This document shows, in pieces, positions 9,701-64,000 of a stretch of 64,000 nt of DNA (position 1 is the stretch's first letter; each line of letters starts with the position of its first letter). This DNA is from a virus. Taxonomy: Duplodnaviria; Caudoviricetes. The stretch is taken from positions 136,991 through 200,990 of IMG/VR virus record IMGVR_UViG_3300029305_004606. The stretch is one strand, 5' to 3'. The translations under genes were made by a program, and so were the position numbers. The notes beneath the pieces are model-generated. The model saw nothing but the letters and a program-made list of their open reading frames with translations, did no database searches and had not been told where the DNA came from.

Positions 9701-12700
9701 ATATGGGTCTCGAACTTGCTGAAAAGATTTCAACTAAACTTGCATCATCTGGAGCAAAATCATTACTTAGTAATGCTGCTAATTTTGTTGTATGGGCTAA
9801 AATTGCATTTATTGTAGTAGACTTTACAACAGGTTATGAGGATGCTAGAACTACACTTGGTATTATAGATGAACCTACAGTTCCTCAGAAAATTATTGCA
9901 GGTTTATTACGTGCATTAAAGAATTTAATTCCTGTAGTTGGTTCGTTAATTCCTGATAGTTTAGTAATAGATGTATTCTGTAAGTATATTGCTCCATTCT
10001 TTGGTATTGAACCTGAAGGTTTAATGAAACAGAGAGAAGAAGCAGAAGCAAAAGTTGCAGAGTATAATGCTGCTAACGGTACAAACTATTCTGTAGGTGA
10101 GTATAATAAGGCTGTATTGCATGATTATACTTGGACAGAAAGAATCGGAAATGCTGCAAAATCTACTGTAAACGATGTTAAAGATAAATGGAATGCTGGT
10201 GTAACTGCTATTAAAGAAAAAGGTTTAGGAGGAGCTATCAAAGATGGAATCTCTAATAACGTTGATATCTTTAAAGAAGCATTCAAAGGTAAAGATGGAG
10301 GTCTTGCTGGAGTTACTTCTGGTATAGGTGCTGTATTAGGAAATCTTTTACCTGGTGTCTTTGGAGAAGTTGCACAAAAGAACACTGAAATTCAAGCTCT
10401 TGCTTATAAGGGTGAGATTGGTGAAATGTGGAAAGTTGCTTTAAGTGACTTCAGTAAAGGTAGTGATGAGGAAGCAAATGTTGGTATATTTAGTAAAATT
10501 ATCGGACAGATTCCTTTATTATTTACCAAGATTAATATGACACCTTTAGCTTTAATCAATAAGGTTATTAGACCTATTATGGATAAAGCTGGAGATGCTT
10601 TTAAGGGTATCATCGAAGGTGGAAAATATATTGCTACTCTTCCTGCTACTGTAGCTGCTGACACTAAAGCACTTGTATACAGTAAAGAAGATACAGATTT
10701 GAAGGATTTCTTCAATGTATCTAAGTATGAACAGCAAGGTGAAAATGGTTTCTATAATGGTATTATTAAGGCGGTCGCAATGACTAGCCGTGTAGCAAGT
10801 TTAGGAACTATGATAGTTGGTGCTGTAGGTAAGAGAATTGGAAAAGCTTTTGTTGAAATTAAGGATAAAGTAGTAAACATGGGCAAGGCATTTATTAGCC
10901 TTGATACAGGTATTACAAGGAAAGCGTTAGAAGGTGACGTATCTAACATGTTCTCCTATGTATCTTCTTCTACTTCAGAAGATGCCAATAATCCTCTTGG
11001 ATTTATTGGTAAAGTATATGGATATACTACTGCAGCCTTAAGAACTCCTCTTGCTTTAGTTTCTAAGGCAGGTAAAGCTATTGGTAAATTCTTAGTTGAA
11101 ACAAAAGATAAAGTTATTACCATGGGTCAAGCTTTTGTAGCATTAGACTCTGGTATCACTAGAAATGCTTTAGCAGGTGATATTGGTGGTATGTTTAACC
11201 ATGTATCTTCTTCTACTTCAGAGGATGCCAATAATCCTCTTGGATTCGTTGGTAAGGTGTATGGCTATGTAAATGCTGCTATGAAAACTCCTCTTGCTTT
11301 AGTTTCTAAGGCAGGTAAAGCTATTGGTGGATGGTTGACAAGTGTCAAAGATAAAGTAGTTACTGCTTTCTCTACTATGGCTACGATGGATCAAAGTATT
11401 ACTGCAAAAGCTACAGCAGGTGATATAACTGGAATGTTTGACTATGTAGCTGGAGCTACATCAGAAGATGCCGAAAATCCTCTTGGATTTGTAGGTAAAG
11501 TATACGGTTATGTAAACGCTGCTGGTAAAGTTCCTCTTGCTTTATTATCTAAAGCAGGTCAAGCTATCGGTGGATGGTTTGGTGAAAAAGTAGATGCGTT
11601 TAAGACAGACGTTGGAACATTAGATTCTGCAAAAGAAGCTCTCAAGGGTATGAGTCAAGATAAATCTAGTTCTATTGGAGATATCATGGGCTATACAACA
11701 GAGTTTAGTGATAATAATGTATTCAAGGGAATTTTTAACGCTATTTTCGGATTCCAAAAGATTTTCTATAGTGCTGCTAAACTTCTCGGAAATGTATTTG
11801 ATGCAATCAGTGGAGTTGTAGATGGTATTAAAGATAAAGTCGGTGGAGTTGTAGATGCTGTTACTGAGAAAGTGTCTGGTGTTAAAGATGCTGTAGTTGA
11901 GAAAGTAGAAGATGTAAAAGAAGGAGCTAAGAAAGTTGTTAATAATGTTAAAGAAGGTGCCAAGAAAGCAGGAGAAACTGTCAAAGGATGGGGAGAAGCT
12001 GCTTGGGATGGTTTAACAGGATGGATAACTGGATCTGGTTCTGGATTTGTTTCTCAATATGATCCTAGATATCAGAATTATAAAGTATCTGGACAGAACT
12101 TTGCTGCTAAGGGTTGCGGTCCTGCTGTAGCTGCTATGGCTGGTAGAGCTCTTGGTAAGAATATTTCTGTTAATGATGCTGTAAATGGTTCTATTGGATA
12201 TCAGAATGGTAACGGTGTATCTATTGATTACTTCCAGCAAATGCTTGGTTCTAAGGGAATCAATACTAGATATATTAGTGGTGGTTCTTCTGCTGATTTA
12301 TATAACTCTATTGCTAGTGGTGAGAAGGTTGTATTACTTGGTAGAGATCCTTATAATACTTCTAAAGAATATTCTCCTTTTGGACCTAACAATCATTATG
12401 TATTAGCTACTGGTATCGATAGAAGAGGAAATGTTATTATTAACGATCCCGAAGCTAGAGGACCTAGAGCTTATAATCCTGCTATTTTGAATTCTGCTAA
12501 GTTTGGTGTAGCTGGTTCTAATAGTGGAATTGGAAGAAGAAGTTCTATTAGAAGATCCTCTAAAGTAAGAAATATTTTCTCAGGCGGATCTTCATATGAT
12601 ACAGAAATTGCTAAGCAAGTTTGGGCATTCTTTATTAATAAGGGATACTCTCCTGAATGTACTGCTGGTATTATGGGTAACATGTATGCTGAATCTGCAA

Positions 12701-55379: not shown

Positions 55380-57107
55380 ATGAAAGTAGCAAAGAATATG
55401 GATTCTGTGTTTGCTAAATGCACACAGGACGAATTAGATTTTGATCTTCTCTTTGATAATGATGATACTATTATCGATTTCATTGCTGGTGTTGATGAGT
55501 CTGGAGAACTCTTAACTGGTCCTAACTTTGATTACTCTATTTTAGAGGAAACTGATATGTTAGAAGATCAGGATGATGCTGAAGCTAGAGATGGTAAAGC
55601 TGATCATGAACCTGCACCTGCTGAAGGATCTAAAGATACAGATCTTGAAGTAGGCGGTGAAGTTGGTGATGGTAAAGAAGTTACTGGCGAAGAAAAATCC
55701 AAAGAAAGTGAGGCACATGACATGACTAAGTTAGGTTATGAAACTGCTCAGCAGACTGCTATTCAGAAAGCTATGGAAATTTCTGCTCAGAAATTTGCTG
55801 ATCAGAAAAATGATTGCTGTAAAGAAAATGCAGAGTATGAAGGTTATGAAGAACTTGTAGAAGCTGTTGTTAACGGTTTCATGAGTGAAGAAGAAATTAT
55901 GTCTGAAGATGCTAGCCAGATTGCTATTAACACAGCTGATTATCTTATCAGTGAATGTGCAGATGCTGAAGCAAGAGATGGTAAAGTAGATCCGGACAAC
56001 AAGGATAACATTGAAGGTGTTAAATCTGAAGTTATCGATAATCAGACTAAAGGTGCTGCTAATGAAGATCCTATTGCAGATGATTCTGATCAGGAAGCAA
56101 GAGATGGTAAAGTAGCTCCGGATAAGAATGTTGAAGGTGTTGCTAACAGAATTATGGGAGCAGCAATGGAATCTGCATCAGGAGATATTCATAAAGATAT
56201 TGATGATCAGACTCTTGATAATGGAGTAGAATCTATGAATAAGGATATCGTTCCTGATTCTGTTCGTGTAAATGATGATTCAAATGATATTGATATCAAG
56301 CAGGAAGCTTCTAAGGAAGTGGAAGATTCTTACAAAGATCTTATCGGTGGAATGAAAACTGGTCTTCAGAAATTAGCACTTGCTGATGCTATGAATGAAT
56401 CTGTTCTTGAAGCTGCTGATGCTATTTATGAAGCATCTGAAGGTAATGTTGAAGCTTTTGATGAGTATGTTGAATATCAGGAAATCTGTGAAGCAGTTAT
56501 TGCTGCTATGAGTGATGAACAAATTAACTTAGAAAATGCTTCTGAATTAGTAATCGAAACTGCAAACTATATTATCTCTGAAAGATCTGCATTGAGAAGT
56601 CTTAAGAGAGGTGTAGAAAGAAACCAGGCTAAGAATGCTGCTCCTGAAGTTAAAACAGGTATTAAAGATAAGATTGCTGGTGCTGTTAAAGGTGCTGGAA
56701 ATTGGGTCAAGAATAATCCTGGTAAAGCTGCTGGTATCGGTGTTGGTGTAGCTGCTGCTGGAGCAGGTGCTGCAATCGCTGCTAAGAAGATTTCTGATAA
56801 GAAGAAAGCTGCTCAGGAAAATCAGGAAGAAGTAAAAGAGAATTATGAGTATCCTGAATATGCTAGTCTTATTGAAGCAGTAGTTGCTAGTTTTACAGCA
56901 GAGGAACTTATGGAAGAGAATGCTTCAGAGTTCGCTTGTGAAGTAGCTGATTATATGATTGAGAATGCTGATGATTATTTACTTGGTGATGATGACGATG
57001 AAGATATCGAAAGCATCGCTAATAACAATGATCCTAAAGTTGATTTACAGTATGACTATGACGATGATGAATTAATCGACATGGTTGTTAATGACAAAGA
57101 ACTGTAA
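55380..57107 (+). CDS. Acidic scaffold-like head polyprotein with internal repeats and one basic hydrophobic peptide
   Basis: 3x 'EARDGK'; 3x ~42-aa 'EY....EAV.......E(N/D)AS......A(D/N)Y.I.E' module; many xxE-(A/S/N) sites. Confidence 0.7.
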   Translation: MKVAKNMDSVFAKCTQDELDFDLLFDNDDTIIDFIAGVDESGELLTGPNFDYSILEETDMLEDQDDAEARDGKADHEPAPAEGSKDTDLEVGGEVGDGKEVTGEEKSKESEAHDMTKLGYETAQQTAIQKAMEISAQKFADQKNDCCKENAEYEGYEELVEAVVNGFMSEEEIMSEDASQIAINTADYLISECADAEARDGKVDPDNKDNIEGVKSEVIDNQTKGAANEDPIADDSDQEARDGKVAPDKNVEGVANRIMGAAMESASGDIHKDIDDQTLDNGVESMNKDIVPDSVRVNDDSNDIDIKQEASKEVEDSYKDLIGGMKTGLQKLALADAMNESVLEAADAIYEASEGNVEAFDEYVEYQEICEAVIAAMSDEQINLENASELVIETANYIISERSALRSLKRGVERNQAKNAAPEVKTGIKDKIAGAVKGAGNWVKNNPGKAAGIGVGVAAAGAGAAIAAKKISDKKKAAQENQEEVKENYEYPEYASLIEAVVASFTAEELMEENASEFACEVADYMIENADDYLLGDDDDEDIESIANNNDPKVDLQYDYDDDELIDMVVNDKEL

Positions 57108-60632: not shown

Positions 60633-60664
60633 ATACTCTAGAGGTATTAACACCTCTAGAGTAT
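60633..60664 (-). terminator. Terminator closing cassette 1
   Basis: ATACTCTAGAGGT/ACCTCTAGAGTAT. Confidence 0.75.
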
Positions 60665-60693
60665 TATTGATTTTTAGCGAACACAAAAATATT

Positions 60694-61275
60694 TTATTTT
60701 AATACTGCATTAACAATACCAAAACGTATCCAGTTATTAGATGATGCAAGATTGTTAGTAAGCATTTCAATCGAAATGGAAGAGTATCCTGATATATTTA
60801 TTGAATAAGTAAATGTACCAGCTAACTCACATACATAATTTACAACAGTAGTAGAAGATGCTGTTTTTGTTTCAATTAAGGTGGATCCACTATAAATTTT
60901 AGTATATAAATATTTAGGTGCTGCATCACCTGTTGTATTTGAACTAATTGTTATTTCTAACGTACTGGCACCATTAGTATCAATAGCACCAGTTTTCATA
61001 GACCATGCTCCACCATTACCATTTACATGCCCTACAAGACCATATGTGTTTTTTCCATAAATATTTAGAGTACCAGTTCCCATTGAATGTCCTTGATAAG
61101 AAAAAGTAGGTGTAGTTATACCTGATTGTAATACACCATCCTTTACAATCCATTTTTCAGTTACAACTTGCCATACGGTAGTGTTATTGCATATCACTTT
61201 AGTTAAACTGGTACCATTGTATTTAATATTACCTGCTGCAGCAGGTATTTCAGTTCCATTAACTTTTATACTCAT
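60694..61275 (-). CDS. Putative tail-fibre tip adhesin / receptor-binding partner (cassette 1)
   Basis: N-terminal ~36 aa shared with 63444-63959; beta-rich variable C-terminus; GAGGTG SD just after the fibre fragment. Confidence 0.65.
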   Translation of the reverse strand: MSIKVNGTEIPAAAGNIKYNGTSLTKVICNNTTVWQVVTEKWIVKDGVLQSGITTPTFSYQGHSMGTGTLNIYGKNTYGLVGHVNGNGGAWSMKTGAIDTNGASTLEITISSNTTGDAAPKYLYTKIYSGSTLIETKTASSTTVVNYVCELAGTFTYSINISGYSSISIEMLTNNLASSNNWIRFGIVNAVLK

Positions 61276-61290
61276 ACTATCACCTCATCT

Positions 61291-61833
61291 CTATGAATAG
61301 GTAATAGTAAGAACAGTACCTGATAATGACATACTAATATTACTCTTTTTAGCATAGTTAGCAGTAGCTGCATATGTAGCAGATGTAGCACTGGTAGCTT
61401 TGCTAGGTGTAGCCCATTTACCATCGCCACGTAAGAAACTATCTTTAGTAGCAGTAGTAGCAGCAGGTACAGCACCAGCAGTTCCAGATGCTGCAGTAGT
61501 AGCTCCTTTATAATTAGGTATAGCTTTAGCATAATTAGCAGTACTAGAATAAGTAGCACTAGTAGCAGATGTAGCTTTAGCTGCAGAACCAGCATATGTT
61601 GCTGTACCTTCATGAGGTGTTGACCATGTACCATCACCTCTAAGGAATTTTAATCTAGTTGCAGTGGTAGCTGCAGGTACTAATCCTTTAGTTCCTGCTG
61701 CAGCTGTTGTAGCACCTTTATATTGAGGAGCATTCTTAGCATAATTAGCAGTAGAAGAATATACTGCTGATGTAGCACTAGTAGCTTTAGCTGCTACTTT
61801 AGTACCATCTCCATATCCAACTAAATCATTATT
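61291..61833 (-). pseudogene. Start-less tail-fibre C-terminal cassette 1 (180 aa, intact frame)
   Basis: NNDLVGYGDGTKVAAKATSATS...GLVPAA...FLRGDGTW...FLRGDGKW...SLSGTVLTITYS*; upstream in-frame TGA, no start codon or SD; missed by the ORF track. Confidence 0.8.
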
Positions 61834-61834
61834 A
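61736..61834 (-). repeat. 99-bp cassette anchor, copy 1
   Basis: 92/99 identical to 63220-63318 by manual alignment. Confidence 0.9.
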
Positions 61835-61885
61835 GATAATATTCAACTTTGTAATAAGGGGAGTCTTAAGAAAGGAGACTTTGTT

Positions 61886-62320
61886 ATGATATCAAATGAA
61901 ACCATAGTAGAAATACTTAAACATATATATTCTTATAGCGATTTAACAAAAACAGAAAGAGATTCTATAGATTTAATGATAGCTAACGAATTAGATTCAG
62001 TAAACTATTATGATAATCAATTTAAGATACTTCCTGTTACTAAACATGATTATGATCATTTACATTATAAAATAAAAAATGAATTCTTTGATGTATTTGT
62101 ATATCGTGATTATAATGTAGATAAAACAAATATGTATCAGATTGTAATGTGTAATAACTATACAGATATATATAATTTTGAAGATGGAAAATATGATAAT
62201 AGAATTAAAGTATGTTCTTTTAAAGTTCCTGTATCTATATTTTCTTTCTTTGACAATAGTATTATTGTAGTTAAAAATAGTTCATATTCTGAATGTAATT
62301 ATGATGAAATTGTTCTCTAG
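61886..62320 (+). CDS. Hypothetical protein between cassettes
   Basis: 144 aa, AAAGGAG SD, AACT-N6-TA promoter-like motif at 61845-61856. Confidence 0.75.
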   Translation: MISNETIVEILKHIYSYSDLTKTERDSIDLMIANELDSVNYYDNQFKILPVTKHDYDHLHYKIKNEFFDVFVYRDYNVDKTNMYQIVMCNNYTDIYNFEDGKYDNRIKVCSFKVPVSIFSFFDNSIIVVKNSSYSECNYDEIVL

Positions 62321-62340
62321 GGTGATAAACCCTAGAGAAC
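62312..62340. terminator. Bidirectional terminator closing cassette 2
   Basis: GTTCTCTAGGGT/ACCCTAGAGAAC. Confidence 0.75.
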
Positions 62341-62363
62341 TTTTTAATTTGATAAAGCGAACA

Positions 62364-63317
62364 CTATTGAGCATAAATTTGACATATACCAACAGCAACT
62401 GAAGGTTTATAAAATCCTGTAACTCGTCCTGTTGCTGTAATTGTTTGAGAAACAGTACTTTTAATTCTTACAATTTTATATGCAAATGTACCATTTCCTG
62501 CTACCATACTTCCTTGTTCAGTAATTACTTCAATAGTATTATTAGTTTTATTAGAAGTTACTGTAAATGATTGTATTCTCCAGTTCTGATTTGGATATGA
62601 TGAAGCATTTTGCCAGTTATCTGCAGAATATCCTGAAACTACAGCACCACAAGCTACACAAAACAGAATATATGTTTTTCCTGCCGCTAATGTTATACTT
62701 TTGGAAGCTGTTGCATCTCCTGTATTGACAGTAGTTACTTGAGGTGCTATTGCAGAAGCTAAACCAGACCAAGTAACAGACATTGAAGATGACTCTATAG
62801 ATGCTATTTTTCCAATAGCAGTAGCAATATCTGCAGGAGAATTACTTGCAGGCGTACTACCTTTAGCTGTAACCGCCTGCATTATTGTATTACAGCCACC
62901 CTGAAAAGACGTTTCTAATGCACCAATTTTTTGTACAATACCCTTTATATTGGTATATTGTGTTGTGGTGCTATCTTTATATCTAAAAATAATATTATCA
63001 TCTTCGTGATAAATATATGGAATAGCAGTACTAGATGTTCCAAAATGTAATCCAGGTAAATAAGCAGAACCATCTCCAAAACCGATTTTTCCAGTTTCTA
63101 ATGTACTAATACGAGAAGCTACTGTGGATGGTACAGCTTTAGCATAGTTAGCAGTACTAGAATAAGTAGCACTAGTAGCAGATGTTGCTTTAGATGCAGT
63201 AGTAGCACCAGCTGAAGATTTAGCATAATTAGCAGTAGAAGAATATACTGCTGATGTAGCACTGCTTGCTTTAGCAGCTACTTTAGTACCAGATCCATAT
63301 CCAGCTAAATCATTATT
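62364..63317 (-). pseudogene. Start-less tail-fibre C-terminal cassette 2 (317 aa, intact frame)
   Basis: Frame of ORF 62364-62882 stays open up to NNDLAGYGSGTKVAAKASSATS...; includes 'SFQGGCNTIMQAVTAKGSTPASNSPADIATAI' fibre motif; no ATG/GTG/TTG upstream before an in-frame TAA. Confidence 0.8.
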
Positions 63318-63318
63318 A
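63220..63318 (-). repeat. 99-bp cassette anchor, copy 2
   Basis: Direct repeat of 61736-61834. Confidence 0.9.
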
Positions 63319-63330
63319 AGAATTAAAATA

Positions 63331-63358
63331 TCTCCAGAGGTTTAAAAACCTCTGGAGA
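63331..63358 (-). terminator. Terminator closing cassette 3, 12 nt upstream of the cassette 2 anchor
   Basis: TCTCCAGAGGTT/AACCTCTGGAGA followed by TATTTT on the minus strand. Confidence 0.8.
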
Positions 63359-63443
63359 CGTATATTTTGACGAACACAAAATATATTGATTTTTAAAACA
63401 GTATTATATCATAATATCAAGATACATCCATTATTAAAAATCA

Positions 63444-63959
63444 TTATTCATTATAAAATTCAATAGAATATATTTTAAGCTCTGCTGTAAAATATGCTGT
63501 ACCATCTGTTGCATGTATATAAAAATTTATATTATCTCCAGATATATCAAAAACGATAGTTCTTCTTTCAGCCTGAGCTACAGATGTTGTATTATAAATA
63601 TGAAACTTATCAGTTACTGCTTGATAAGCTGAATATCCATCATATGCATAGTATTCAACTTTCATCTTATTACATCCACCTGTTGGTAAAGTTGCAGTTA
63701 ATCTAGTTTGTGCAGCATGACCAACATTTGGACTCTTTTTTGCATATAATCGAAGTTCATTTTGTAATATTTGATAATCATTATCATCTCCAGATTGAGT
63801 AGAATAAGTCCAATTATATTTTGTAAAATCTGTAATAGTATATGGTGTACTTGCTCCCCATACAACAACTTCGTTAGCAACAACTTTTGTAATATTAGTA
63901 TTATTTGCTTTTATAGTACCAGAAACCGGTATTTCAGTTCCATTAACTTTTATACTCAT
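63444..63959 (-). CDS. Putative tail-fibre tip adhesin / receptor-binding partner (cassette 3)
   Basis: MSIKVNGTEIP..G.IK.N.T..TKV..N...VW N-terminus; unrelated beta-rich C-terminus. Confidence 0.65.
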   Translation of the reverse strand: MSIKVNGTEIPVSGTIKANNTNITKVVANEVVVWGASTPYTITDFTKYNWTYSTQSGDDNDYQILQNELRLYAKKSPNVGHAAQTRLTATLPTGGCNKMKVEYYAYDGYSAYQAVTDKFHIYNTTSVAQAERRTIVFDISGDNINFYIHATDGTAYFTAELKIYSIEFYNE

Positions 63960-63971
63960 ACTATCACCTCT

Positions 63972-64000
63972 TTAAAATGTAATAGTAAGAGTAGTACCAG
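63972..64000 (-). CDS. 3' end of a third tail-fibre segment (runs off window)
   Basis: ...GTTLTITF* homologous to ...GTVLTITYS* of cassette 1, followed by the same GAGGTGATAGTATG junction. Confidence 0.7.

Follow-up and report, generated by a model that had tools for sequence, protein, structure and literature searches.

The final 64,000 nucleotides (nt) of a 200,990-bp viral contig (IMGVR_UViG_3300029305_004606, here G000), referred to below as the window, hold part of what is very probably a multicassette shufflon for a virion fibre or receptor-binding protein, dispersed over tens of kilobases in a jumbo phage of the AR9/phiKZ type. In the proposed arrangement, a single gene with a ribosome-binding site would supply a constant N terminus of 124 amino acids (aa) ending in CTAAA-TAATGA-TTTAG, read L-N-N-D-L, and at least 14 alternative C termini would be available to complete it, 11 of them in this contig and 3 in a part of the genome missing from it (one of these being the C terminus expressed now). 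Each stored C terminus would open with a 6-bp overlap and the right arm of the site, preceded by a degenerate left arm and lacking a start of its own. Conservative site-specific recombination inside the invariant TAATGATTTA would then join one cassette to the N terminus, the partner gene and terminator, where present, moving with the cassette and blocks of ordinary genes between the sites being reshuffled.

Two complete cassettes lie in the window as open minus-strand frames of 180 and 317 codons, counted from the peptide NNDL (Table 1), with the first residues NNDLVGYGDGTKVAAKA in cassette 1 and NNDLAGYGSGTKVAAKA in cassette 2. The frames stay open for 3 and 8 codons, respectively, 5' of NNDL, none of which is ATG, GTG, or TTG, and the first methionine is reached at codon 168 of cassette 1 and codon 146 of cassette 2; gene callers annotate an internal 172-aa open reading frame in unit 2. 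The letters GGAG/GAGG near positions 63323 to 63345, which resemble a Shine-Dalgarno (SD) sequence, sit within the stem of the hairpin just 5' of site A, and this hairpin would shield cassette 2 against read-through. A first-pass annotation of the window had described both frames as intact and devoid of a start codon or usable SD sequence, and this description is borne out; as stored, the cassettes are presumably silent. The 99-nt head that it reported as common to both cassettes is also real (93% identical). It had further proposed three units in the same orientation, each closed by a terminator. The hairpins are present (12 terminator-like sites against 1.0 in shuffles, including the three in Table 1), but the third unit consists of the final 29 nt of one cassette, because the contig stops there, and the common orientation holds inside the window and not genome-wide. 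The variable small genes said to follow units 1 and 3 are indeed there and are related to each other.

The window frames are two of 11 start-less frames in the 201-kb contig. The terminal 25 kb contain 11 copies of the motif TAATGATTTAG, against 0.05 expected, and the remaining 176 kb contain none. All 11 copies sit in the first 19 kb or the last 3 kb, so that the further silent copies anticipated in the first-pass annotation are found at both ends, and an open frame of 180 to 383 codons begins at each of them. Four sites lie on one strand and seven on the other, with two head-to-head pairs, and between the sites there are ordinary genes, including that of the RNA polymerase beta-prime subunit. 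The head GYG.GTKVAAKA is missing from 5 of the 11 cassettes, though the site is present; judged from these sequences, the functional anchor appears to be a site of 10 to 11 bp and not the 99-bp repeat to which that role had been assigned.

The six bases that precede the core do not vary among nine expression sites, which yields the 16-bp CTAAA-TAATGA-TTTAG, in which 5-bp inverted arms flank a 6-bp asymmetric overlap. This layout matches that of tyrosine recombinase sites. The 35 silent sites keep the overlap and the right arm, and their left arm is AT rich and degenerate. In nearly all of approximately 45 silent copies, the frame is intact from the site onward, and 33 of 35 have no in-frame methionine upstream. 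Spacers of 4, 8, and 10 nt at head-to-head sites were considered as a sign of homology-free recombination, which was rejected given the invariant left arm of the expression site (9 of 9); they more plausibly represent tiny blocks enclosed by a pair of sites.

Since no copy of TAATGATTTAG falls within any long gene of G000, the expressed gene lies outside this contig. G000 starts with the reverse complement of its own last 127 nt and is classed in IMG/VR as having inverted terminal repeats. That these are true genome ends was rejected, as the 127-nt repeat is intragenic (coding) and is spanned by other contigs; the ends of G000 are an assembly break, which makes the database entry “inverted terminal repeats, 100% complete” an artefact. 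Both ends of G000 overlap with G001, a 30.7-kb contig assembled from another sample that carries structural and collagen-like genes absent from G000, and further contigs extend from G001 into the last positions of the window or into the beginning of G000 with 99.9 to 100% identity. At least 30.7 kb is missing from G000, and the genome comprises 201 kb plus at least this amount. The full-length gene with the site in frame, which the first-pass annotation had placed outside the window, was found on this missing segment (G001; IMGVR 3300029305_001403) and is absent from the present assembly. It has a strong ribosome-binding site, and the recombination site closes its first 124 codons, where it is read LTTL-NNDL. 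It is preceded by an Mtd_N gene, upstream of which lies the motif AACA-N6-TA, which we take to be the late promoter consensus of AR9-type phages. The beta-prime subunit is approximately 30% identical to those of Listeria LPJP1 and of Bacillus and Staphylococcus jumbo phages, and the multisubunit RNA polymerase, together with a genome of >200 kb, identifies the phage by sequence as a member of the AR9/phiKZ type. The window is present in sequencing runs from animal faeces and bovine gut metagenomes, and no RNA run was found to include the region.

The far end of G001 carries a site (S0; G001:30611-30622) that heads no cassette. A cassette-less site is also present at G002:33429-33440, so that in two phages a 30- to 33-kb structural segment is bounded by such a site, in the orientation of the expression site. 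S0 recombines in contigs L021, L022, and L177. Upstream of the expression gene (L005:1630-7082) are two collagen-like genes with GPTG repeats, of 1,312 and 477 codons, and several glycosyltransferase genes; the fibres are possibly glycosylated. A hairpin at L005:9373-9400 lies about 55 nt 5' of the expression gene start, and a different hairpin occupies this place in L007.

Alternative joins at the site, which the first-pass annotation had predicted, occur within the same phage. Contig L178 runs for 1,920 nt at 100% identity to the expression segment and then for 2,418 nt at 99.96% identity to window positions 63320 to 60903. The resulting fusion of the 124-aa N terminus with the 317 aa of cassette 2 is 441 aa long and shows zero residue differences from either part. 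A different cassette, of 181 aa (ANKQ), occupies the expression position in seven further contigs, and other heads are found there in three more contigs, from strains at the 99% level or more distant. Six assemblies have cassette 2 next to the left flank of site A (695 nt, 100% identity), and in three (L021, L022, and L177) this flank continues into S0 instead. The parental sequences have 15 nt in common at the join of N terminus and cassette 2 and 13 nt at that of S0 and site A. Because 13 to 15 nt is below the usual assembly k-mers, assembly chimerism is unlikely, and because the joins have no more than this in common, ordinary homologous exchange is disfavoured.

Blocks are also reshuffled between strains. 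In a related strain, the N terminus is again followed by cassette 2, its terminator, and the 144-aa gene, whereas in another, gene blocks from opposite ends of the contig adjoin. The gene order of ERZ27248370 (order only) suggests that the ANKQ block is stored behind the 144-aa gene. Cassette 2 has a ratio of nonsynonymous to synonymous substitution rates (dN/dS) of 0.54 to 0.63 between strains, and its dS is 0.54, against 0.026 for the neighbouring gene (approximately twenty times faster), a divergence that points to replacement from a diverse pool.

Some junctions were set apart from this evidence. The read joints 63322-60621 and 63319-62299 were rejected as independent evidence, as paralogous terminator-plus-cassette copies explain them, and the junction in L019 between cassette 1 and the cassette located at contig position 10008 was set aside, as it lies within a 160-nt repeat and may be chimeric. 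At L183:2792-2830, an expression-site join is followed by a stop 11 codons past the site, which represents either a frameshifted cassette (a fibre-off state) or an assembly error.

The exchange is probably performed in trans by a distant XerD-like protein, the only tyrosine recombinase of the contig (82418 to 83497). Its catalytic residues R-K-HxxR-H-Y are intact, with the catalytic tyrosine at position 342 of 359. Searches of the contig for resolvase, large serine recombinase, and IS110 domains were negative, PF00239 and PF07508 being absent (part of the genome is missing), and Pfam detected no PF00589 tyrosine recombinase in two 30-kb segments, including the 30.7-kb one. Homologues of the candidate are 51 to 94% identical across the clade and lie on the fibre-locus contig in three relatives. 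The nearby recombinase envisaged in the first-pass annotation did not materialize, the candidate being more than 60 kb from the nearest site, and 40 to 130 kb separate recombinase and fibre locus in every genome checked. This distance, and the part of the genome still missing, would suit an explanation that differs solely in the enzyme, with the same shufflon served by an Xer-type recombinase of the host or by a phage protein that escaped recognition. That explanation is unlikely, as the phage recombinase is the one tyrosine recombinase in a contig that shows none of the other recombinase domains searched for, and is conserved across the clade. In two relatives, an HNH endonuclease gene directly follows the recombinase gene (L174:4180-5424 and L176:4326-5375), which is not the case in G000.

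Exchange would proceed by inversion, which is preferred because nothing is lost and the sites lie in both orientations. If the pairing in L019, L020, and L185 is taken, the window units face the expression site in inverted orientation and each join arises by one inversion, in one case of >30 kb. If that in L177 is taken, both joins are deletions, one of which removes the structural module. Contig 3300029705 likewise suggests a direct orientation of these units toward the expression site, and on this basis the same sites and enzyme class could act mainly by excision and re-integration between direct sites, as in integrons. Runs of same-orientation cassettes exist, and the rapid divergence of cassette 2 implies that cassettes are also replaced. 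We regard this mode as improbable all the same: L177 and 3300029705 both cross an ambiguous repeat of 195 nt, whereas L019/L020 and L185 back the opposite pairing, loss between site A and S0 would delete the structural module, and the sites include head-to-head pairs. Taken to its full extent, the inversion reading would have a distant trans-acting recombinase flip the whole 30.7-kb structural module, from the expression site to the cassette-less site, against at least 14 tips, some of them with a docking adhesin, new tips coming from a clade-wide pool of more than 70 families and essential genes riding as passengers; to this extended version we give an even chance.

The first-pass annotation had cited two precedents, recombination at a site inside the reading frame and gene conversion as in the pilS and vls archives. 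Site-specific exchange has stood; copying from silent donors, by conversion or by homologous recombination across the 99-bp head, has not. Ala/Thr/Ser-rich repeats of 60 to 380 nt are common to cassettes, L019 joins cassette 1 to another cassette within such a repeat, and the cassettes appear mosaic. In pilS and vls, however, extended homology lies on both sides of the variable part, whereas here there are the 13 to 15 nt at the joins and 72 tip families, most tips having no homology beyond NNDL; downstream terminators and ordinary genes, moreover, move together with the cassette. As the main route, copying from silent donors is very improbable and largely refuted, and it may be a secondary source of mosaics. 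It is hardly credible that the units are short genes each expressed on its own, duplicates in decay, or products of faulty assembly, for, although gene callers place internal starts in several cassettes and the dN/dS of cassette 2 is only 0.54 to 0.63, frames are intact in nearly all silent copies, upstream in-frame methionines are lacking in 33 of 35, the exact 441-aa fusion is found, and the joins are shorter than assembly k-mers.

Several observations weigh against a shufflon served by the distant recombinase. Every junction comes from short-read contigs, the join of N terminus and cassette 2 comes from one contig of this phage and one of a related strain, and the Joint Genome Institute (JGI) samples may stem from one campaign. 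The reciprocal junction was not recovered among the contigs compared. Two cassettes have approximately 195 identical nt in common across the assembly break, which leaves the contigs compatible with either orientation of the window units toward the expression site. The cassettes of the window have no Pfam match and match only a PHROG of unknown function. The candidate recombinase is 63 kb from the nearest site, whereas the rin gene of prophage shufflons adjoins its own array, and no cassette arrays were detected beside its 33 to 45% identical homologues outside the clade (temperate-phage and bacterial), although the detector recovered known arrays.

The product of the array would be a virion fibre or receptor-binding protein, receptor binding being suggested by family matches. 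Among 104 full-length fusions, 38 match PHROG hyaluronidase and 30 tail spike, in addition to many tail-fibre families, and single tips match the Pfam families H_lectin, Peptidase_S74 (chaperone), and gp53-like_C. The assignment of the frames to tail-fibre C termini in the first-pass annotation is supported at this family level by the fusions, but the window's own tips match no named family. For the N terminus, a model with a predicted local distance difference test (pLDDT) score of 88 has as its best match the N terminus of a streptococcal phage hyaluronidase tail fibre (Foldseek E value, 0.03), which is weak and above all others; a VIA search with the same model returned mostly generic helices. 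The constant 124 aa is proposed to form a hyaluronidase/Mtd_N-like attachment domain followed by a coiled coil. The 441-aa fusion modelled from its single sequence reached a low pLDDT of 40, with the tip as a generic beta-sandwich (Z score up to 6.1).

An SGTTLTIT-like terminal strand closes six cassettes of this phage, and a related small gene follows all six; no such gene was found after any other cassette examined. The 193-aa partner has a conserved N terminus of 35 aa and a variable beta-sandwich C terminus, and its Atlas model resembles CBM/NPCBM-type carbohydrate-binding domains with template modelling (TM) scores of 0.5 to 0.6. The likeliest role of the partner is that of a separate tip adhesin. 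Gp38 of T2, an adhesin carried on gp37, is an analogue for such a role, and the U/U' genes of Mu are partner genes that travel with the fibre tip, as here.

The N terminus has 234 homologues of similar length. In 95 of the best 120, the sequence diverges at NNDL, or at a near variant of it, into the 72 tip families. Four relatives hold 6 to 14 start-less cassettes within 15 to 20 kb, in both orientations, and their cassette order differs from that of G000, as the first-pass annotation had expected of related genomes. In a more distant 250-kb relative (G004), the exact motif is absent, and a fused N terminus, about four start-less frames, and a drifted site keep the same layout; in another of 250 kb (G005), neither the exact motif nor an N-terminal homologue was found. 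No cultivated phage with the N-terminal gene was found, and the idea that Roseburia phage Shimadzu carries such a shufflon proved wrong on checking.

The locus has the general features of a shufflon, namely, a constant 5' part with silent 3' parts, an in-frame site in both orientations, and alternative joins in one lineage. By its sequence, it appears to work like the Rin, Min, BV01, and R64 systems while departing from each in its specific features. The Rin shufflon of Bifidobacterium prophages (PMC6109161) and Eggerthella lenta clade 1 prophages (PMC8778435) likewise combines a constant N terminus of a receptor-binding protein and several unrelated variable C termini with a short asymmetric 11-bp crossover repeat and a predicted tyrosine recombinase (PMC6109161, PMC8778435). 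Rin, however, is a compact five-variant locus of small temperate phages with rin adjoining (PMC6109161), whereas here at least 14 cassettes extend over tens of kilobases, are interspersed with ordinary genes, including that of an RNA polymerase subunit, and have their recombinase more than 60 kb away, so that no tyrosine invertase gene flanks the array. The rix site of Rin is TTCCCTAACCC (PMC6109161), in contrast to TAATGATTTAG here.

In R64 (Rci, sfx, and pilV), adhesin C termini are likewise swapped, with tyrosine recombinase geometry, at an in-frame site with a conserved core and right arm and a variable left arm (PMC11852207), and the asymmetry of sfx is proposed to restrict Rci to inversions (PMC11852207). 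The R64 site has a 7-bp core and a 12-bp right arm (PMC11852207), compared with a 6-bp overlap and 4 to 5 conserved arm bases here. R64 shuffles four contiguous segments of a plasmid pilus adhesin with rci adjacent (PMC11852207), whereas the present system concerns a phage fibre gene with no adjacent recombinase, and the extra C-terminal domain of Rci is not evident in the candidate enzyme, the catalytic tyrosine of which is at 342 of 359 aa. Min (p15B), Cin (P1), and Gin (Mu) likewise exchange tail-fibre C termini at a site inside the reading frame, but they are serine invertases with far fewer variants and compact loci (PMC6109161); no serine invertase was found in this contig (part of the genome is missing). 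A BV01-like gut phage of Phocaeicola vulgatus also has directional motifs, of 10 bp, between non-homologous distal tail-fibre cassettes (PMC13596623, preprint). Its locus, from a temperate phage, spans 1.7 kb with three cassettes, six variants, and an adjacent recombinase (PMC13596623), and that described here is larger and dispersed.

Programmed receptor switching has so far been described in small temperate phages and plasmids, and in the library searched no paper joined “jumbo phage” and “shufflon”. If switching alters host recognition, as the fibre assignment suggests, a clade of 230- to 290-kb gut phages with 6 to 14 or more stored tips would possess a third host-range route beside point mutation and diversity-generating retroelements (DGRs). 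The shufflon would also explain the assembly breaks in these genomes and their mislabelling as complete with inverted terminal repeats. It offers a testable system: the site is defined to 16 bp, there is a candidate enzyme, and ligands could be mapped for more than 70 tip families that occur naturally on one scaffold. Few shufflon invertases serve as tools, and a recombinase that exchanges segments of tens of kilobases at a 10-bp core would add to them.

Table 1. Features of the fibre cassette region (window positions; a full stop marks a feature of both strands)
Feature	Position	Strand	Remarks
Terminator-like hairpin at end of unit 1	60633-60664	-	Preceded by GTGTTCG motif, 60678-60684
193-aa partner gene of cassette 1	60694-61275	-	Strong SD; moves together with cassette 1
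Silent fibre cassette 1 (putative), 180 aa, start-less	61291-61833	-	SGTxLTITx motif at end
Recombination site B (putative)	61821-61836	-	Degenerate left arm + TAATGATTTAG (61831-61821)
Ordinary 144-aa gene inside cassette 2 block	61886-62320	+	Relocates with block between samples and strains
Bidirectional terminator-like hairpin ending cassette 2	62312-62340	.	Preceded by GTGTTCG, 62358-62364, minus strand
Silent fibre cassette 2 (putative), 317 aa, start-less	62364-63317	-	Expressed C terminus of 441-aa gene in sample 3300018494
Recombination site A	63305-63320	-	Degenerate left arm + TAATGATTTAG (63315-63305); three different joins
Terminator-like hairpin just 5' of site A	63330-63359	-	Preceded by GTGTTCG, 63371-63377
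171-aa partner gene of contig-end cassette	63444-63959	-	Strong SD
127-nt repeat, reverse complement of contig start	63874-64000	-	Cassette tail (63972-64000) + partner-gene start

The motif GTGTTCG, located about 15 to 20 nt before a hairpin of 12 to 14 bp, is exclusive to the ends of cassette blocks, occurring also at contig position 434 and at about L005:10997-11066; one stray copy, at contig position 100314, has no hairpin. Motif and hairpin together may form a block-specific terminator or a regulatory element. A scan for sigma-70 promoters gave matches at chance level. Elsewhere in the window, positions 55380 to 57107 encode a very acidic protein of 575 aa with internal repeats and a basic Ala/Gly-rich segment.

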